DNA of 59,310 nt from a virus (IMGVR_UViG_3300048834_000244:1-59310), one strand, 5' to 3'. Positions 4,987-12,285 are shown, counted from the first letter of the stretch. Notes: a model not told the origin generated them from the letters alone. Translations and numbers: made by a program.

Positions 4987-5052
4987 CCCAAGCAATTCCG
5001 CTTGTCCCTCCAGCTTGGCGCTGGATTGACAGAAGTATAGGAAAAAAGACTC

Positions 5053-5382
5053 CTATTTGCAAGAGTTGTTCCGCTTCCGTAACGATCCTTTCCACAAAGG
5101 AAGCGTCAACTGAACCGGCTTTCGATGATACTCCTGTTTCGCGTCAAGCAGGTTGGCGATAAGTGAGGCGACGGCCTTTCGCGCCAAGCAACGCCGTAAC
5201 AGCGCGGGCCATGTCTTCGACGCCAAGCGCCGAACGGTTCGAATAATGGCTGGCGCGTCCGGGCCGAACCTGTCCCGCATGCGCTTCAGATTGAGCGTGG
5301 CGTTATGGTTGCATGCCGGGTTGTGACAGTACGCGGTGACCGTCATCCTGTCGTCGATGAGGCTCTGGAAGGTCCAAGCCAT
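5053..5382 (-). CDS. Hypothetical protein with Cys/His motif, possibly chimeric
   Basis: MAWTFQSLIDDRMTVTAYCHNPACNH; GAGAGG RBS. Confidence 0.45.
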   Translation of the reverse strand: MAWTFQSLIDDRMTVTAYCHNPACNHNATLNLKRMRDRFGPDAPAIIRTVRRLASKTWPALLRRCLARKAVASLIANLLDAKQEYHRKPVQLTLPLWKGSLRKRNNSCK

Positions 5383-5430
5383 TGCCCGACCTCTCGCTGG
5401 TTCCGACTGGAAGCTTAGCAGACGATCCTG

Positions 5431-5470
5431 AAAACAAAAAGCCGCCGACCACCCACGGGCAGCCGGCGGC
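5431..5470 (-). terminator. Terminator at end of late/lysis operon
   Basis: GCCGCCGGCTGCCC...GGTGGTCGGCGGC stem followed by TTTTTGTTTT on the minus strand. Confidence 0.75.
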
Positions 5471-5534
5471 AAATGGTGGGGTAAGCCCTGTATCGCGACA
5501 GGTGGCGCATCCGCCCGGAATGGGCTGGATAGGG

Positions 5535-5912
5535 TCAGCCGCTTCGTAGCAAGCGCATGATGACGTCCCACCAATAGGCGAGAAACCCAACGACGGCGCT
5601 CGATATGGCGGCCGACGCTATGCCGACGACGAGCAGCGCGCCCTTCCCTTGCGCCTTCCAGAGCTTCACCTCGTCGGTGACAGCCTTGGTATCGGCGACC
5701 GTCACCTTCAGCGCGGTCATATCGGTTTTGACTTCGCCAACCTCGTCGGCGATTTCCTCGACGCGCTTGTGAATCGCAGAGCGATGTTCGGCGGCCTTGT
5801 CGCTCGTGTCGAGCGCATTCTGGTCGGCCCGGTCTATCTTCTGGCCAAGGTTCTTGACCTCGGCCCTGAGCTCCCCGATTGCCTCGGAGATGTCGTCAAG
5901 TTTCGTGGCCAT
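5535..5912 (-). CDS. Coiled-coil membrane protein of the lysis module (DUF1515/holin-like)
   Basis: Coiled-coil N-terminus and a C-terminal TM helix; last gene of the lysis cluster. Confidence 0.65.
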   Translation of the reverse strand: MATKLDDISEAIGELRAEVKNLGQKIDRADQNALDTSDKAAEHRSAIHKRVEEIADEVGEVKTDMTALKVTVADTKAVTDEVKLWKAQGKGALLVVGIASAAISSAVVGFLAYWWDVIMRLLRSG

Positions 5913-5935
5913 GCCCGCCCTTCCCGAATGCACTG

Positions 5936-6019
5936 TCAGATGAGAGAGAACATCGTCGCCGCGATGATGCCGATGGCGACGACGTAGACGGCGAAGATGA
6001 GCAGCCAGTCGCGGATCAT
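5936..6019 (-). CDS. Small single-TM peptide (27 aa)
   Basis: MIRDWLLIFAVYVVAIGIIAATMFSLI. Confidence 0.35.
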   Translation of the reverse strand: MIRDWLLIFAVYVVAIGIIAATMFSLI

Positions 6020-6064
6020 GGCCGCCATCCGCAGAGGAAGAGGTCGATCATGGCGTTCGCCCCA

Positions 6065-6167
6065 TTGAGCCTGCATGATTTTGTGAGTACAAATAGCGAA
6101 CCCGCCGAGCGTTCCAGCGCTGCGACGGGTTCTAACCAAGCCAACCTGTAAGGAGGTCGAAATGGCT
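6065..6167 (+). promoter_or_regulatory. HNH leader copy 1: sigma70 promoter plus two hairpins
   Basis: TTGAGC-17-TACAAA; GAACCCG/CGGGTTC stem; AGCCAACCT-gtaagg-AGGTcgaaaTGGCT hairpin over SD and ATG. Confidence 0.7.
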
Positions 6168-6866
6168 ACTTCCCGAATATGCTCGATTCCCGGTTGCAGC
6201 AAGGCTGCTAGGTCACGCGGATGGTGTCGTGCCCATTATGAGCGCTGGCGACGAAATGGTTCCCCTACAGCGCGGGGACGTGGCAACTCAAAAAGAAACA
6301 CTGCGGTACGCTTGCTTTGCGAGACGTGCGGCAGTGGCTACCATCCGTGGGCTGGTCGCGAGACCACATCGAGAACTTGCAGCCGCCAATGCAACGGACA
6401 GATATCCAAACAGGGAAACTCCTATCAATCATCTGACTTCGACCGGCTTATCGACCAGTCTGATGGTTGTTGGATTTGGAAGGGGCCATTACGCGAGGAT
6501 GGTTACGGCGAATTCTTTATCGCGGGCCGGCGCTTTCGCGCGCATCGATATTCTTTCGAGCGGCAGTATGGCCCTATACCGTTAGGGCTATTTGTCTGCC
6601 ATCGCTGCGACAATCCCTCCTGCGTGAATCCGGATCACCTGTTTGCCGGAACGCAACGCGAGAATATGCAGGATATGGCCGCGAAGGGGAGGCACGGCGG
6701 GCCAGATTTGCGGGGCGAAGCCCACCCAATGGCTCGGATCACCAGGGAAGTTGCCCAAGCCATCCGCGTTGACTTGAGACCTGCAAAGGATGTCTCCGCT
6801 CAGTACGGCGTCAGCAAATCCCTAGTTTGGGCGATCAGAAGTGGCAGGTTGTGGAACGGCACCTAG
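6162..6866 (+). CDS. HNH homing endonuclease
   Basis: CSIPGC...RGWCRAHY N-terminal Zn motif; VCHRCDNPSCVNPDHL HNH core; C-terminal HTH. Confidence 0.92.
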   Translation: MATSRICSIPGCSKAARSRGWCRAHYERWRRNGSPTARGRGNSKRNTAVRLLCETCGSGYHPWAGRETTSRTCSRQCNGQISKQGNSYQSSDFDRLIDQSDGCWIWKGPLREDGYGEFFIAGRRFRAHRYSFERQYGPIPLGLFVCHRCDNPSCVNPDHLFAGTQRENMQDMAAKGRHGGPDLRGEAHPMARITREVAQAIRVDLRPAKDVSAQYGVSKSLVWAIRSGRLWNGT

Positions 6867-7054
6867 GTCGACGGCCAGTGACATAATTTTTCCCCGGTCT
6901 TGAGATACGCGAGGTGCCGCGCGGCTTCTGCGTCGGTCATCGCGTCGTAGACAGGCTGGCTGTACTTCAACTGCGGCGCGATCTGGCAAAAGCTGCCGGA
7001 CGTTGTGGAGCAGCCGGCGAACATCAAAGCGGCGAGGATGACGGCGGCTTTCAT
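6863..7054 (-). CDS. Outer-membrane lipoprotein, o-spanin (Rz1-like)
   Basis: Lipobox FAGC; downstream of a TM/coiled-coil gene in the lysis cassette. Confidence 0.75.
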   Translation of the reverse strand: MKAAVILAALMFAGCSTTSGSFCQIAPQLKYSQPVYDAMTDAEAARHLAYLKTGEKLCHWPST

Positions 7055-7284
7055 TTCGCGGCCCTCTTGGAAAGCTCGTCACGCACCTTGTCGGGCGGGA
7101 GCATGGAGACGTCGTTGACGACCTGATCGCGGATATCCCGCGCTTCCAGTTCGGCTTCGGCCTGTTTCGCCTTCTCAGCCTTCTTCCCTGAGGCATAGGC
7201 CCGCCAGAGCATCAGCCCGGCGCCGCCCGCCGCCAGCAGATACGGCCACAGGTGTTCGATGAGGGAGAGGACGAGCGTGGTCAT
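7051..7284 (-). CDS. i-spanin (Rz-like)
   Basis: N-terminal TM followed by charged helix; ATGA-coupled to the lipoprotein. Confidence 0.7.
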   Translation of the reverse strand: MTTLVLSLIEHLWPYLLAAGGAGLMLWRAYASGKKAEKAKQAEAELEARDIRDQVVNDVSMLPPDKVRDELSKRAAK

Positions 7285-7493
7285 GTCAGCACCGCCCACA
7301 CGAGCCACGCGATCACGGCAAGCAGCGCCGCAACCAGATATCCGCACAGTTCCATGAGAGCGCCGCCGGCATCTGGGAACATGCTGCCGCGATTTGGCTG
7401 CATCCTCACGCCGAAGAATCTCCAGCCTACGAGCAGTGCTATGGTTATCATGGCTGGAACAAGCCACCAGCCGAGAGAGAGCGTGAACGTCAT
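7281..7493 (-). CDS. Two-TM membrane protein
   Basis: Two hydrophobic helices; GGGAG RBS. Confidence 0.65.
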   Translation of the reverse strand: MTFTLSLGWWLVPAMITIALLVGWRFFGVRMQPNRGSMFPDAGGALMELCGYLVAALLAVIAWLVWAVLT

Positions 7494-7494
7494 G

Positions 7495-7557
7495 TCAGCG
7501 CTCCCATCCAAGCTTGCGCGCCAGCGCGTAGAATAGATGCGAAACAGCAGCCGCCAT
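7495..7557 (-). pseudogene. Mini-ORF / relic homologous to the holin C-terminus
   Basis: MAAAVSHLFYALARKLGWER resembles GAANELWYWAAKRFGWTT at the end of 8282-8485; has its own GGAGG RBS. Confidence 0.55.
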
Positions 7558-7569
7558 AAGCGCCTCCGT

Positions 7570-7674
7570 TTGATTTAATGTGTTGATTCAGCTACAAAAA
7601 GCGAACGCGCCGGATGCTGGACACATCGCGGCGCGCTCTAACCAGCGCAACCTGTAAGGAGGTCGAGATGGCTG
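7570..7674 (+). promoter_or_regulatory. HNH leader copy 2
   Basis: TTGATT-17-TACAAA; GAACGCGCCGGATG...CATCGCGGCGCGCTC hairpin; SD-sequestering hairpin. Confidence 0.75.
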
Positions 7675-8273
7675 CCGGATACAAACCATGCTCAATAACT
7701 GGCTGCAACGGGAACGCGAACTATTCCGCGAGTGGGAAGCGCGGCTGGTGCAACATGCATTACCGCCGCTGGCAGCGCTATGGTGACACCTCATTCCGCG
7801 TCCGTCCCCCAAACGGAGAAGTGAGGCTATACTTCAAAACAGTCGTAATTCCCTACTCGGGCGAAACGTGCCTGATATGGCCCTTCGCAAGGAACGAAGC
7901 AGGGTACGGGGTGATAAATCTGCCCGGGGCCTCATCGTCTCTCGTTTCCCGCATTGTCTGCGAGGCAACCCATGGGGAAGCCCCGTCAGATACCCACGAG
8001 GCCGCGCATTCATGCGGCAAGGGTCATGAAGGCTGCGTCAGTCCGAGGCACCTTTCATGGAAAACACCGTCGCAGAACAGCGCTGACAAGCACACCCACG
8101 GAACAACCTCAAAAGGAACTCTGTCTCCTCTTTCCAAGCTTGACGAAGCATCTGTTATTGCGATCCGGCGAATGGCTGGGTCAATGACGCAAGTCGAAAT
8201 AGCGGCTCATTTTGGGGTGGCGCGCACGACAGTCAGCAGCATACTGCACGGTCGAAATTGGTCTTGGCTATGA
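7668..8273 (+). CDS. HNH (His-Me finger) homing endonuclease
   Basis: CSITGC...RGWCNMHY; AAHSCGKGHEGCVSPRHL; C-terminal HTH. Confidence 0.9.
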   Translation: MAAGYKPCSITGCNGNANYSASGKRGWCNMHYRRWQRYGDTSFRVRPPNGEVRLYFKTVVIPYSGETCLIWPFARNEAGYGVINLPGASSSLVSRIVCEATHGEAPSDTHEAAHSCGKGHEGCVSPRHLSWKTPSQNSADKHTHGTTSKGTLSPLSKLDEASVIAIRRMAGSMTQVEIAAHFGVARTTVSSILHGRNWSWL

Positions 8274-8281
8274 CGGCAGGA

Positions 8282-8485
8282 TCATGTCGTCCACCCGAAC
8301 CGCTTGGCAGCCCAATACCAAAGCTCGTTGGCGGCACCTATGACGAACGCCAGTCCCATTTCGATCAGCGAGGCGATTTCAGGATCGGAGGTGAGCGCGT
8401 TGCCGTCCTCTGCCGAGAACACGGCCTTGCCGACGAGAAAGCCGACAAGCAGGCGCAGAATGATGCGGGAGATCGGTCCAAGCAT
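8282..8485 (-). CDS. Putative holin
   Basis: 67 aa, two hydrophobic segments, GGAGG RBS, located between endolysin and spanins. Confidence 0.65.
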   Translation of the reverse strand: MLGPISRIILRLLVGFLVGKAVFSAEDGNALTSDPEIASLIEMGLAFVIGAANELWYWAAKRFGWTT

Positions 8486-8499
8486 GTCAGCCTCCACAT

Positions 8500-8604
8500 T
8501 TGATTTAATCAGTTGATTCTGCTATAAAAAACGAACGCGCCGGATGCTGGACACATCGCGGCGCGCTCTAACCAAGCCAACCTGTAAGGAGGTCGAAATG
8601 GCTG
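8500..8604 (+). promoter_or_regulatory. HNH leader copy 3
   Basis: TTGATT-17-TATAAA; near-identical to 7570-7674. Confidence 0.75.
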
Positions 8605-9308
8605 AGAATCCGATATGCGCAATTCCAGACTGCGGCAAGCCCGTCAAATGCGCGGGCATGTGCTCCATGCACTATGCGCGGAAATGGCGGCACGGCGACG
8701 CGAGTATCGCCAGAGCGAGGCCGCGCGGCATCTGTTCGATGGATGGGTGCTTAAATCTTCATTCCGCTAGAGGACTTTGCAAAACGCACGCCACGCGCCT
8801 CAAAAAGCATGGCGATCCATCTGTGCGTCTTACAAACAAAAACAAGGGGAAGAGGATAAACTTCGTACTAGAAGTTGCGTCGCCTTTCACGGGGGACAAT
8901 TGCCTGCATTGGCCGTTCACGCCCGGCAAACGCGGGTGGGCTCCAAGCATATCCATTCACGGTAAACGACAGGTTGTGACAAGATACCTCTGCGAAGTCC
9001 GTCATGGGCCTGCTCCAACAACAGCGCACCAAGCGGCGCATGTGTGCGGTCAAGGGCATCGCGGATGCGTCAACCCCTCCCATTTACAGTGGAAAACCCC
9101 GAGCGAGAACCAACTGGACAAAATTGAACACAACACTCACATACGCGGCACGAGATCCCCTACAGCCAAGATTGACGAAGCGATGGTTATTCGTGTCAGA
9201 TCGCTTCTTGGAACGATGAATTGCAGAGAAATTGCCCGGCGATTGGGAATCAGCTGGAACATAGTCTATGCGATTAAGGATCGTAGGACATGGGGCTGGC
9301 TAGAATAG
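8598..9308 (+). CDS. HNH (His-Me finger) homing endonuclease with duplicated N-terminal Zn motif
   Basis: Two C-x4-C...CxxH..HGD repeats; AAHVCGQGHRGCVNPSHL; HTH. Confidence 0.9.
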   Translation: MAENPICAIPDCGKPVKCAGMCSMHYARKWRHGDASIARARPRGICSMDGCLNLHSARGLCKTHATRLKKHGDPSVRLTNKNKGKRINFVLEVASPFTGDNCLHWPFTPGKRGWAPSISIHGKRQVVTRYLCEVRHGPAPTTAHQAAHVCGQGHRGCVNPSHLQWKTPSENQLDKIEHNTHIRGTRSPTAKIDEAMVIRVRSLLGTMNCREIARRLGISWNIVYAIKDRRTWGWLE

Positions 9309-10085
9309 CCAAGCCCACGCATGATTCCAAACATCCGTCAGCCACAGCCATGCCCCAAGCAGCGCGGCGATGATGAGCGCCCAGATGCCCTTGGCGCGGC
9401 CTGCGGGCGGCGTAGGAGTGATCGTCGGCTCCGGCGGCACCGGAATGGGCGCGGCGGGCTTGGGCGGCTCCACGGGCTCGGCAGGGGCCTTGGGCGCGTC
9501 GGCCTTCGCCCATTTCGCGTAGGCGCGCGCCATCTTCGTGTCGTAGGCGTTCTGCTTGTAACCCGGCCCGTTGTAGGCTCGGGCGAACTTCGCCCAATCC
9601 TTCCTGCGCAGATGGCCGGCGAGGTCGTTCTTCTCGATGAAGCGCGCCATGACCTCGATCTGGCCCGCCACAGACGAGCGGCACTCGTTCACCAGTTCCG
9701 TCACGGACCCGTAGCCGAGCGCCTTCCAATGCGCGCCCATGACCTGCCCCAAGCCCCATGACACGCTTTCCAGAGCAGCGGTCGAGTTGATCGCGATGGC
9801 CCGGTTGAGCAGCTTCCAGCGGTCTTCCTGCTTGGAGGGGTTCTTCACCGCACCAGCAGTCGGGCTGGACAGGCCTTCGGCCCTTGCCTTCTTGCGCTGG
9901 GCCGCAGTCAGACGGCGGTCGAAGTAATGGCCCTCGAACCGGATCAACGGCTCGTTCTTGCTGTTCACACGAGCGAATGCCTTGCCCGCGCTCTCGACCT
10001 CCGCAACGGCCAGCAGAGCTGCTGGCTCGACGTTCAGGCGTGCAGCAACCTTTGCCGCTGCGCGCACGGTCGCATCGTCAAACAT
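9300..10085 (-). CDS. Endolysin, N-acetylmuramidase (DUF3380-like) with C-terminal TM anchor
   Basis: AVAEVESAG, IRFEGHYF, SWGLGQVMG and FARAYNGPGY motifs; Pro-rich linker then TM. Confidence 0.92.
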   Translation of the reverse strand: MFDDATVRAAAKVAARLNVEPAALLAVAEVESAGKAFARVNSKNEPLIRFEGHYFDRRLTAAQRKKARAEGLSSPTAGAVKNPSKQEDRWKLLNRAIAINSTAALESVSWGLGQVMGAHWKALGYGSVTELVNECRSSVAGQIEVMARFIEKNDLAGHLRRKDWAKFARAYNGPGYKQNAYDTKMARAYAKWAKADAPKAPAEPVEPPKPAAPIPVPPEPTITPTPPAGRAKGIWALIIAALLGAWLWLTDVWNHAWAWLF

Positions 10086-10245
10086 GACGGTTTCCTTTCA
10101 GGATTGTCGGAGAATTTCGGTCAGTGCAGAGTGAGAGCGCGGACCCACGCATGCCGGCCGCCGTCTTGTTCGCAGGATGGCGGCCAGCGCTTCACGCTTG
10201 CAACAATCCGCCCCGAGGCGCGTTAAGCCGCGAACCGGTGGAGGG

Positions 10246-10539
10246 TTAGATAGGCTCGTCCGGCACGAACATCAGGCCGACCGATGCCAGCACGTCAGAG
10301 CACCATTCCCAAGGCAGCTTGAAATCCTGCGCGGCGGAATAGAGGTTCATCTGCGCGCAGGCCGCAATGGCATCCACCGCCGAGATGATGCCTTCCTCTC
10401 CCCATGCGACACTATCCGGCAGGTTGCCTGCCTTCATGTCCGTCCATAGCAACACATCAGGTTGCGGGCGGTGCTCGTTCCGAGAGCCGTCTACCCTCTC
10501 ACGCCCACACCGCCACCCTGTGCTGCACGTCCTCCGCAC
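10246..10539 (-). CDS. Hypothetical protein (start uncertain)
   Basis: ORF fills the gap in the late operon. Confidence 0.4.
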   Translation of the reverse strand: MRRTCSTGWRCGRERVDGSRNEHRPQPDVLLWTDMKAGNLPDSVAWGEEGIISAVDAIAACAQMNLYSAAQDFKLPWEWCSDVLASVGLMFVPDEPI

Positions 10540-10933
10540 GATAAATCTTGACGCCCGATGTCCCCGCCAGCGCGACAGGCTCGCCGCCCTCCGATGGCGT
10601 CTCCTGCATCAGCCCGAGCAGCGGCAGGATGCCCTCCCATGAGCCGAGAAGCGCGGCCACAGGGCCATAGGCGACGAGGTTGGCGTGATGGCCCGCCACC
10701 ATGACGGCAGGCGTCAGCTCGTTGCCCTCGTCGTCATAGGTCGCCGGCTCCTTGATGACGGGACCGATCTCGTGGTAGCGGATGCCGTCGATCCAGACCA
10801 GCGAGCCGCCGTCGCCGACATGCTCGTCATCCTCCGGCAGGCGACAGATCGGCTGGTCGCCGGGAAGGCGTTGGGCGAGCATCGTCGTGATGAACGTGTC
10901 GCGGTCGGGAGACCAGACCAGATATTCGATCAT
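10499..10933 (-). CDS. Hypothetical protein, probable fibre-associated chaperone
   Basis: ATGA-coupled to the spike/fibre gene; PATYDDEGNELTPAV motif typical of fibre-adjacent genes. Confidence 0.7.
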   Translation of the reverse strand: MIEYLVWSPDRDTFITTMLAQRLPGDQPICRLPEDDEHVGDGGSLVWIDGIRYHEIGPVIKEPATYDDEGNELTPAVMVAGHHANLVAYGPVAALLGSWEGILPLLGLMQETPSEGGEPVALAGTSGVKIYRAEDVQHRVAVWA

Positions 10934-12285
10934 GACGGGGTGCTCCTCGTGACCAGCTCGGCGTTAGGGAGCCGGCGCGGAATGTAGATCAGCGATTTGA
11001 TATGGCCGTTGAGATGGTTGATACCGCTCACCCGACTCCCAATTTCGATACGATCCACCGCCGCTGGCAGAGCCCCGGAAACGTCTGATGGGTGAGAGGG
11101 GACGGCTCCGTCTATACGGGTGGCGAAATCGTTCAGAGCATAGGCAGTACCTATCTTGTAAAATCGATTCGCGACGAACGCTGCTGTGCTGCCGATGTTT
11201 GCCTGCAGAACTCCCCCCATATAATAATCACATCTAGCCGTCCCCGCTGTACCGCCCGGCGATGTCCCCAGTGCCATCTCCGGCACTCTGTCTTGATTGG
11301 CAGTTGCAGTGTTCCTCACAATGAACACAACGGAATGGGTGGCTGACGCATTGAGACGGGACGCCTCGACCAGCCACGTTCCCTCGGCGAGTTTGATCGG
11401 CGCGCTTGCGGACGGCATCCAGATATTGTCCGCAGCGCGGGTGACGGCGGAGCCGGAGGTCTGGATGTATGAGGTGGGGAAGGTGCCGACTTCCAACTGA
11501 GCACGCACCACCGTCCCTATGATAGTAAGGGTCAAGGCCCCGGCAGTTGGCGTGAATGTCAGCGATACACGGTCATCGTCACCCGTCCCTACCAGTGGAC
11601 CTGCGGTGGATGCGCCAGACAAAGCTATCGAACCCTCGCCCCAAAACGACAGGGTATAAGGTGTGGCGGTAGCGGTAATTATTTGCGTCGTTGGAGCATC
11701 TGAGCCGAGCAGCAAATTCGTCCGCTGCTCTTCCACCAACAGCCCGAGCGCGACGATGATCTTCCAGCTTGAGCAGGTAAAATACCCGCTCGCCGCCCGG
11801 AAATCGACCACGAGGGAGCCGCCCGCATAGGATACAACCCGACCGGCCATCCACTTCGCGATGTCGGAGGCGTCGGAGGCGACGATATCCTGTCCCGCAA
11901 CGTAGGTAACGGCACCTGATGTGGTCAGCGTCTTGCGCACCACGCCGCCATTGCCGACGCCGAGGCTGTTGTCCGAGGATGCCGACGTGTCCAGCGTCGA
12001 CGCATCGTGATCGCAGCGCAGCGTCGTGCCGCTCGCAAGCAGGCCATGCCGGTTCGTGATCCACTTCGTCGACGGCGCGGTATAGGTCAGTTTGCCGTTC
12101 GGATCGCCGCTATAGGGAGACGGGCCGCCCCGCGCGAGGCAGTCCATCGCCACGAAGTCGACGGCAAAGCCGGAAGGCTCGGAGCCGAGATGGTCCAACA
12201 AGTAGCCGGCAGGTGAACGAGCGCCGAAGCGTGTCCCACCCCTCCCCTGCATGGAGAGGGAGAGGCCGAAACGAAGGCCGCTCAT
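10930..12285 (-). CDS. Head spike / fibre protein with LamG-like C-terminal domain
   Basis: GLLVEEQRTNLL and AQLEVGTFPTSYIQTSGSAVTRAAD motifs; HLNGHIKSLIYIPRRL terminus. Confidence 0.75.
   Translation of the reverse strand: MSGLRFGLSLSMQGRGGTRFGARSPAGYLLDHLGSEPSGFAVDFVAMDCLARGGPSPYSGDPNGKLTYTAPSTKWITNRHGLLASGTTLRCDHDASTLDTSASSDNSLGVGNGGVVRKTLTTSGAVTYVAGQDIVASDASDIAKWMAGRVVSYAGGSLVVDFRAASGYFTCSSWKIIVALGLLVEEQRTNLLLGSDAPTTQIITATATPYTLSFWGEGSIALSGASTAGPLVGTGDDDRVSLTFTPTAGALTLTIIGTVVRAQLEVGTFPTSYIQTSGSAVTRAADNIWMPSASAPIKLAEGTWLVEASRLNASATHSVVFIVRNTATANQDRVPEMALGTSPGGTAGTARCDYYMGGVLQANIGSTAAFVANRFYKIGTAYALNDFATRIDGAVPSHPSDVSGALPAAVDRIEIGSRVSGINHLNGHIKSLIYIPRRLPNAELVTRSTPS

Follow-up and report, generated by a model that had tools for sequence, protein, structure and literature searches.

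How can three nuclease genes lie backwards within the lysis module of one phage, each behind nearly the same ~105 nucleotides, and what does this shared DNA do? The locus belongs to a 59,310-bp viral record, rated 76% complete, which we refer to as the window. Its lysis module occupies positions 5400-10100 on the minus strand, and three HNH genes on the plus strand (HNH1, HNH2 and HNH3) are interspersed with it, each cassette being inserted exactly at a gene boundary, antisense to the module. Free-standing homing endonuclease genes are common in phages; to our knowledge, it is only in T4-type phages that the way in which they achieve safe expression regardless of context has been worked out in detail. 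The upstream regions of the three HNH genes align across ~105 nt, and we call this shared block the head. The repeats are, in our judgement, probably the 5' heads of three separate mobile HNH homing-endonuclease cassettes, that is, a self-contained expression and insulation module that provides shared homology for exchanging cargo. Conservation, covariation, a promoter signature, the cargo tally, empty sites and swaps were observed; from these we infer an active promoter, the point at which transcription starts, repression of translation and the strand served by the first hairpin.

All three heads lie on the plus strand. Head 1 (6065-6167) consists of a -35 box, TTGAGC (6065-6070), a 17-nt spacer, a -10 box, TACAAA (6088-6093), a first hairpin (hairpin 1; 6098-6132), CTAACC from 6132 and a C/A-rich spacer (together 6132-6143), a second hairpin in which ACCT and AGGT pair over the Shine-Dalgarno (SD) sequence (the SD hairpin; 6144-6157), and the ATG at 6162; an outer helix, AGCCA/TGGCT (6139-6143 with 6163-6167), overlaps this ATG. 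Head 2 (7570-7674) contains TTGATT (7570-7575), 17 nt, TACAAA (7593-7598), hairpin 1 at 7603-7638, CTAACC from 7638 and the ATG at 7668; AGCGC replaces AAGCC in its spacer, and the outer helix is weaker. Head 3 (8500-8604) contains TTGATT (8500-8505), 17 nt, TATAAA (8523-8528), hairpin 1 at 8533-8568, CTAACC from 8568 followed by the SD hairpin, and the ATG at 8598. The common order is TTGAGC/TTGATT, 17 nt, TACAAA/TATAAA, 4 nt, a 35-36-nt hairpin, CTAACCA(AGC/GCG)C, AACCT-GTAAGG-AGGT and CGA(A/G)ATGGCT. Because the SD and ATGGCT are conserved, HNH2 and HNH3 are assigned starts at 7668 and 8598, not at the 7614 and 8544 of a mechanical list of open reading frames (ORFs).

A 29-nt core, CTAACCANNNCAACCTGTAAGGAGGTCGA, occurs three times in the window with 0 mismatches, always on the plus strand, and was matched in 0/100 shuffles. 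Whole-leader folds recovered both hairpins, at -31.5, -28.5 and -30.1 kcal/mol for copies 1, 2 and 3 (z-scores -3.4, -0.9 and -3.5), and the SD hairpin alone gave -10.1, -6.0 and -10.2 kcal/mol, respectively. The copies therefore stand where a preliminary description of this DNA had placed them, with the promoter boxes at 17 nt and both hairpins. Its statement that the leader is far more conserved than its cargo also holds: within the window, identity is 0.81-0.94 for the leaders, 0.57-0.61 for the ORF nucleotides and 0.29-0.37 for the HNH proteins, and heads 2 and 3 are 94% identical in front of ORFs that are 59% identical.

As judged from sequence matches, a composite head of ~110 bp is common to many phages and prophages of Alphaproteobacteria and to some of Pseudomonas. 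A DNA pattern scan of viral contigs returned at least 119 stretches; among the matches listed, 57/125 pattern occurrences passed a filter for the hairpin and the SD, the remainder look chance-like, and a covariance model later matched 2 more. This model, R1, was built from 57 copies and, with a threshold of >=31 bits for full-length hits, gave 69 such hits in 57 sources; heads 1, 2 and 3 score 95.2, 74.4 and 93.9 bits. Some of the hits lie outside the pattern selection and have variant spacers. One contig contains four hits, and several contain two or three. We also drew a sample by protein only, comprising the best 80 of 374 HNH relatives on viral contigs, found with a profile from 8 closer HNH proteins. 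The head, scored at E <= 0.01, stood directly upstream of the HNH gene in 50/80 of these loci. Together, the two surveys support the preliminary proposal of a portable element that defines self-contained endonuclease cassettes.

Covariation among the homologues is strong for both hairpins and in both of the alignments that we used. In a plain MAFFT alignment, 87.8% of cells were paired, compared with 74.7% after shuffling (0/500 shuffles reached the native value) and 30-44% in slid controls. In the protein-selected set, which was aligned by fitting to the model and hence favours structure, a bias of which the MAFFT alignment is free, 87.6% of cells were paired versus 69.0% in shuffles, and the covariation score was 0.464 versus 0.149 (0/500). 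Double changes were found in this set at 13/14 pairs of hairpin 1 and at 4/4 pairs of the SD hairpin, 91.9% of whose cells pair, with co-varying arms that include ACCT/AGGT, ACAC/GTGT, GAAC/GTTC, GATC/GATC and GACC/GGTC. When the 5' and 3' halves of the SD hairpin were swapped between copies, the mean energy rose from -7.81 kcal/mol for the native hairpins to -6.65 kcal/mol for the chimeras, and 0/2000 permutations reached the native mean. The CT(A/G)ACC right after hairpin 1 is nearly invariant in the protein-selected set, and ATGGCT is almost universal. By eye, neither the CtrA box nor the alphaproteobacterial LexA box fits the CTAACC region, and a paper on CtrA in phages is silent on these genes.

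A promoter signature precedes hairpin 1. Counted from the start of the -10 box in 64 distinct copies, positions -23 to -21 are T in 47, T in 36 and G in 33, which corresponds to the 17-nt spacer, and position -2 is G in 45/64. A -35 TTG with a spacer of exactly 17 nt is thus enriched, as is a TG ahead of the TAnAAA box, giving TTG-17-TGnTAnAAA. Antisense-inserted cassettes keep the T, T and G of the -35 box better (22, 20 and 14 of 24) than do co-oriented ones (13, 8 and 11 of 22). The sole promoter signature lies upstream of both hairpin arms, and a promoter scan called nothing in the interval from hairpin 1 to the SD.

We propose that the head works in four parts. The TTG-17 nt-TGnTAnAAA signature would be a promoter of the host sigma-70 type that gives the nuclease gene its own transcription. 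The GC-rich hairpin ~4 nt after the -10 box, variable in sequence and constant in pairing, would delimit the unit, whether by stabilising the sense mRNA at its 5' end or, following the strand test described below, by acting as a terminator for the other strand. The nearly invariant CT(A/G)ACC and the C/A-rich single-stranded stretch behind it may form a standby or enhancer site. The short second hairpin is predicted to pair the 3' half of a near-perfect SD (UAAGGAGGU), and mostly also the UG of the AUG plus GCU, and this masking of the SD would throttle translation. Overall, expression of the nuclease would become independent of the landing site. Since the head is the sole DNA common to otherwise divergent cassettes, it would serve in addition as 5' homology for the exchange of cargo ORFs.

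Several observations weigh against this interpretation. A sigma-70 consensus scan called no promoter at the heads, because the -10 box usually ends in A, not T (A in 42 and T in 15 of 64). The SD hairpin is short and masks the SD partly, the SD core having a median unpaired probability of 0.37. The outer helix across the AUG, AGCC(A)/(U)GGCU, shows conservation almost without compensatory change, and one of its pairs is broken in 13/38 cells when the 5' side changes; for the earlier assertion that the second hairpin buries both the SD and the AUG, covariation thus gives support at the SD, where all pairs show double changes, and hardly any at the AUG helix. Most of the model-building copies were picked by a pattern that fixes TCTAACCAAGCC and ATGGC, which inflates the apparent conservation, including the leader comparison over 1711 pairs (median identity 0.74 for leaders, 0.58 for ORF nucleotides and 0.32 for proteins); for this reason our conservation claims rest on the protein-selected set. 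In that set, 30/80 HNH relatives had no scored head, and 2 of these had a divergent head by eye. Many of the remaining headless relatives are translationally coupled to an upstream ORF, so the head is optional. Four metatranscriptome contig sets match parts of the cassettes and their neighbours; these contigs show neither strand nor transcript starts or ends and are silent on transcription. Antisense placement, presented earlier as part of the picture, is true of the three window copies and fails as a family trait: among 67 cassettes, both neighbours are opposite in 24 and both co-oriented in 22, according to a crude home-made gene caller, so that antisense insertion is common and not the rule. 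Finally, hairpin 1 is more stable as RNA of the opposite strand in 46/49 and 35/38 distinct hairpins, with mean energies of -23.9 vs -18.8 and -23.2 vs -19.4 kcal/mol for the opposite and the sense strand.

This last observation raises the question of which strand uses hairpin 1. The non-Watson-Crick cells of hairpin 1 are A.C/C.A far more often than G.U (87 vs 13 in 56 rows; 41 vs 8 in 42 rows), and the hairpin is stabler on the opposite strand because these A.C/C.A cells become G.U there. The excess stability is seen in antisense-inserted and co-oriented cassettes alike. On the sense strand, hairpin 1 is followed by CTAACC with no T tract, and the T-rich tract lies on the opposite strand: the 8 nt preceding the stem contain at least 5 A, which are T on the other strand, in 41/56 and 31/41 copies, and a -10 box ending in A rather than the usual T lengthens this tract. 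A terminator scan called the minus-strand hairpins of window copies 2 and 3 terminator-like and did not call that of copy 1. A pure sense-leader reading does not explain this bias, and a role of hairpin 1 in the sense leader is doubtful. The preliminary picture of a structured RNA leader is accordingly divided, in that hairpin 1 is real and covarying and its place in the sense leader is in question.

Hairpin 1 may instead be a Rho-independent terminator for the opposite strand, outside the sense leader, which would make the head a back-to-back promoter and terminator module. It would then stop antisense transcription through the HNH gene, or end a cis-antisense RNA over the SD and AUG like art200 of IS200, an element that, in the part of its description available to us, has a terminator hairpin at its end plus an antisense RNA over its 5' untranslated region (PMC4513863). 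We regard this as a serious possibility, though one that falls short of an even chance. The stem does not adjoin the T tract directly, a GC or GT dinucleotide lying between them, and the tract itself is broken up. Terminators of this kind in the window would interrupt the lysis operon at three places, barring antitermination by the phage, and no conserved minus-strand promoter for a short antisense RNA was found, as looked for by eye only. Much of the A.C excess also falls at two positions common to subfamilies (25 and 27 rows), which may reflect few events. An opposite-strand terminator would be compatible with the proposed expression module for the rest of the head.

A broader and more speculative idea, to which we give a rather low probability, sees in the head a two-faced insulator, thanks to which a selfish nuclease gene could be accommodated backwards between any two genes of a phage operon. 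For the sense strand, the head would provide the promoter and the throttled ribosome site; on the other strand, hairpin 1 and the T tract would end the transcript of the interrupted operon or a short art200-like cis-antisense RNA; and the cassette edge would abut the start codon of the next phage gene and supply its SD, as seen in contig L106. If true, the head would represent a new class of structured element, acting on both strands and conserved in phages from two proteobacterial classes. The outer edge of antisense cassettes often reads ..TCCTTG.. (9212-9230 of L106 as oriented, and several other heads), and the complement, CAAGGA, then lies 5-9 nt ahead of the ATG of the divergent neighbour, with CCTTG exactly at the -35 box in only 3/24. 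The cassette edge may therefore supply the SD of the divergent neighbour gene.

Mobility is documented by natural strains. None of 63 loci encoding endolysin relatives carries the head (63/63 without it). In contig L143, DUF1515 directly follows the o-spanin gene, which represents an empty HNH1 site, and in the related strain L138 the genes for endolysin, membrane protein, holin and i-spanin are contiguous, which represents empty HNH3 and HNH2 sites. At a fourth site, between the i-spanin and o-spanin genes, L138 carries a different cassette, of AP2 type, whose head resembles copy 3. Contigs L106 and L107 carry cassettes at neighbouring sites, and each has the empty site of the other; the insert spans the DNA between position -111, counted from the ATG, and the stop codon, and begins 1-2 nt past the start codon of the neighbour. 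Contigs L009 and L036 have cassettes at the same site, with flanks 84-90% identical, heads 99% identical and the last 300 nt before the ATG 96-100% identical. Their cargo is 17% identical and of different classes, the homology stopping at ATGGCTAA and resuming at the stop codon. This is one clean swap of exactly one ORF, and other syntenic pairs also have different cargo, though direct products of recombination were not seen. The earlier suggestion of a recombination handle fits this pair.

The same exchange could be taken further, to mean that the head owes its conservation chiefly to a role as DNA, as a site of recombination or homing for cargo exchange or targeting, the RNA folds being secondary. 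The near-identity of L009 and L036 up to the ATG and of window heads 2 and 3 in front of dissimilar ORFs agrees with this view, and the PeSL elements of T4-type phages are proposed to work in this way in the portions of PMC2839356 and PMC4122927 that were accessible. However, the hairpin sequences vary freely while their pairing is kept, an outcome not expected from sequence homology by itself; L106 and L107 differ in the entire cassette, along with its head, at their neighbouring sites; and no shared DNA motif was seen past the stop codons, where ordinary terminators occur only in co-oriented cassettes. We therefore consider a mainly DNA-level role improbable.

Two further breakpoints were noted in and near the window cassettes. 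At 7512-7533, homology to L138 continues for 22 nt beyond the start of the holin gene, and in L138 these nucleotides form the 3' end of the small membrane-protein gene; the segment resembles a remnant of an older allele next to the HNH2 cassette, of the kind that co-conversion of the flanks would give. At 8857-8858, two metatranscriptome contigs from one run match up to 8858 or from 8857 and are unlike the window beyond, which suggests mosaic HNH3 alleles, split between the zinc-finger and the catalytic parts.

What the head carries was examined by tallying the genes downstream of it. The 65 distinct cargo ORFs comprise 46 zinc-finger HNH proteins, 13 HNH_3 proteins with or without AP2 and 1 NUMOD4 fragment, so that HNH_3/NUMOD4-type genes make up 60/65; of the others, 3 have no family, 1 is a tyrosine integrase (L092:246-1228, behind a 65-bit head) and 1 is a helicase-like ORF of the DEAD/ResIII type (L012:1-543, behind a weak 38-bit head). 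The module is therefore not strictly tied to HNH genes. This bears on the idea that the encoded HNH protein binds its own head, as an operator or as an RNA site, with autoregulation as in I-TevI, which represses its own promoter according to the sections of PMC2988022 at hand: class A cargo has a conserved C-terminal helix-turn-helix (HTH), and yet HNH_3/AP2 proteins without that HTH, as well as the integrase and the helicase-like ORF, stand behind a head with an identical CT(A/G)ACC core, so, the head being independent of cargo class, we reject leader binding by the HNH proteins as a general rule and think it very unlikely.

Class A cargo has a further peculiarity just inside the ORF. In 65/65 class A ORFs, the codon ahead of the first Cys of the zinc finger is ATA (29), TTA (13), CTA (11), GTA (9) or CCA (3); in the window the sites are 6177-6182, 7680-7685 and 8613-8618. 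The amino acid at this position varies, yet ..TA TG(C/T) is kept in the 62 with nTA. Elsewhere in class A ORFs, ATA makes up 0.20 of Ile codons and CTA plus TTA 0.20 of Leu codons. The bias is a nucleotide-level constraint, either a conserved out-of-frame ATG or a TATGCT box.

Does the head correspond to a known system? By our comparison, made with the parts of the cited papers that we could consult, it appears to belong to none of the IS200 left end, the SD hairpins of T4 and the PeSLs, and the IS200 left end is its closest functional parallel. The IS200 left end has a terminator hairpin at its edge (nt 12-34), a tnpA start at ~nt 40, a stem-loop that sequesters the SD, and the antisense RNA art200 (PMC4513863). 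In both cases a nuclease or transposase gene of a mobile element stands behind two hairpins, one at the edge, of terminator type in IS200 and possibly so here, and one sequestering a near-perfect SD, and the single strand between them is C/A-rich, a stretch proposed in IS200 to be a standby or enhancer site for the 30S subunit. In IS200, however, the terminator hairpin lies upstream of the tnpA start, whereas hairpin 1 follows the -10 box; the cargo there is a Y1 transposase, compared with HNH proteins (60/65) here; and the sequences are not alike. A counterpart of art200 is conjectural here; a conserved minus-strand promoter was not seen by eye.

PeSLs, as far as the available parts of PMC2839356 and PMC4122927 describe them, are composites of ~100 bp in T4-type phages with a conserved sigma-70-like promoter, a stem-loop, an SD and a start codon. 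Like the head, the composite is repeated within a genome before unrelated ORFs, and it is proposed to mediate their insertion, loss and replacement. Unlike in the head, the PeSL stem-loop lies between or over the promoter boxes and terminates same-direction transcription from upstream, whereas hairpin 1 is 3' of the -10 box with no sense T tract; the head has an additional SD hairpin and the invariant CT(A/G)ACC; and PeSL cargo consists of ORFans, in contrast to homing endonucleases in phages of Alphaproteobacteria and Pseudomonas.

In T4 and Aeh1, hairpins that bury the SD limit translation of homing endonuclease genes (I-TevI, I-TevII, I-TevIII, segB and mobE; PMC2988022, consulted in part). 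The analogy drawn to these ribosome-binding-site hairpins in the preliminary description is apt in one respect, namely that the SD of a phage homing endonuclease gene is paired in a conserved hairpin. It does not extend to the late promoter inside the hairpin, which was not seen here: the T4 hairpin forms only on read-through transcripts and an internal late promoter frees the SD, whereas here the promoter signature is upstream of both arms and the hairpin is predicted to form in every cassette transcript. In addition, the T4 hairpins are gene-specific, in contrast to one portable conserved module. Lambdoid morons, in the part of PMC2839356 that covers them, are likewise single genes between phage genes, often in the opposite direction, with their own promoter and often a terminator; they differ in having no shared conserved head and in not being thought to move by regulatory sequences.

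These comparisons define what the head adds. One portable structured module would serve dozens of HNH genes, divergent among themselves, in temperate phages and prophages whose hosts are Pseudomonas, Rhizobiales and other Alphaproteobacteria, and natural strains show gain and loss of cassettes and exchange of cargo at exact gene boundaries. The head is a compact motif outside Rfam by which such cassettes can be found, it may offer a natural part for insulated expression, and it presents a testable case of a hairpin possibly acting on the strand opposite to its gene.

In a cmscan of 5000-11000 against Rfam 15 with E values up to 10, the 4 hits were all at chance level (on a leader, RF00043 alone, with 18.9 bits vs a gathering threshold of 55, E 9.9), and thus no Rfam family matches. 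Searches of the literature, without supplementary files, for the 14-mer TAACCAAGCCAACC and for keywords found nothing on the head, and BLAST of head 3 alone against named phages gave no match at E <= 0.01. When a 4.7-kb query was compared with named phages, a single one, Rhizobium phage RHph_N3_2, matched it over the head and the initial 45 nt of HNH1; in this phage the head precedes an HNH gene, antisense and adjoining the lysis genes. Of five named rhizobial phages that encode members of this HNH family, RHph_N3_2 contains the head twice and RHph_X2_25 once, and the other three lack it. In a collection with one genome per species, a strict pattern matched 18 contigs, from Rhizobium, Mesorhizobium, Aminobacter, Pseudaminobacter, Aquamicrobium, Shinella, Henriciella and Rhizorhabdus and from two Pseudomonas species. 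In L242 and L243, at ~1350-1500, a headless HNH relative lies just past the apparent 3' end of a tRNA gene, and a different hairpin together with an SD hairpin is found upstream of it.

The window phage itself is widespread. Between 0.77 and 0.92 of the words sampled from 5900-9400 were present in 14 DNA runs from freshwater, wastewater, activated sludge and soil, and 20 listed public runs from 10 studies, 6 of them RNA libraries, contain at least part of this segment. Contigs of the window phage or close strains (L127, L130, L133 and L138) were binned in metagenome-assembled genomes labelled Rhizorhabdus or 'uncultured Gammaproteobacteria'; some of these contigs are the window phage itself, so those labels do not fix its host.

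The three nucleases share an overall architecture and fall into two HNH subtypes, as had been noted at the outset: the core has the form CDNPSC..NPDHL in HNH1 and AAHxCGxGHxGC in HNH2 and HNH3. HNH1 (6162-6866, plus strand, 234 residues) combines an N-terminal CxxxxC..CxxH zinc finger, its HNH_3 core and a C-terminal HTH; it matches Pfam HNH_3 (PF13392) with 46.9 bits vs a cut-off of 24.8 and PHROG HNH families to E 2e-33, and it has no sequence match to solved structures at E <= 1. HNH2 (7668-8273, plus strand, 201 residues) has the same architecture with the core variant AAHSCGKGHEGC, matching Pfam HNH_3 with 17.3 bits, under the cut-off, and PHROG HNH at E 3e-19. HNH3 (8598-9308, plus strand, 236 residues) has two N-terminal zinc-finger repeats, the core AAHVCGQGHRGC and a C-terminal HTH, matching Pfam HNH_3 with 16.3 bits, also under the cut-off, and PHROG HNH at E 9e-14. 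The alignment-invariant C/H/N/D residues are retained in both HNH2 and HNH3.

The surrounding lysis genes are all on the minus strand. The endolysin, an N-acetylmuramidase (9300-10085; Pfam PF11860, E 3.6e-55), is convergent with HNH3. Between the HNH3 and HNH2 cassettes lies a small membrane protein of the lysis module (8282-8497; phrog_34283), whose start codon is 3 nt from the -35 box of head 3 and whose L138 homologue directly follows the endolysin. The next small membrane protein (7281-7511) has a homologue in L138 and no family match, and is named holin-like from its position and hydrophobic sequence. It is followed by an Rz-like i-spanin (7051-7284; phrog_1026, E 6e-9) and an Rz1-like o-spanin lipoprotein (6863-7054; phrog_1275, E 3.5e-6), the stop codon of which overlaps that of HNH1. 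A DUF1515 protein (5535-5933; Pfam PF07439) lies beyond the HNH1 cassette. Between the two, at 5936-6019 on the minus strand, is a 27-codon ORF whose product by eye resembles a hydrophobic membrane peptide, without a family match, and this stretch also has a nucleotide match in strain L138.

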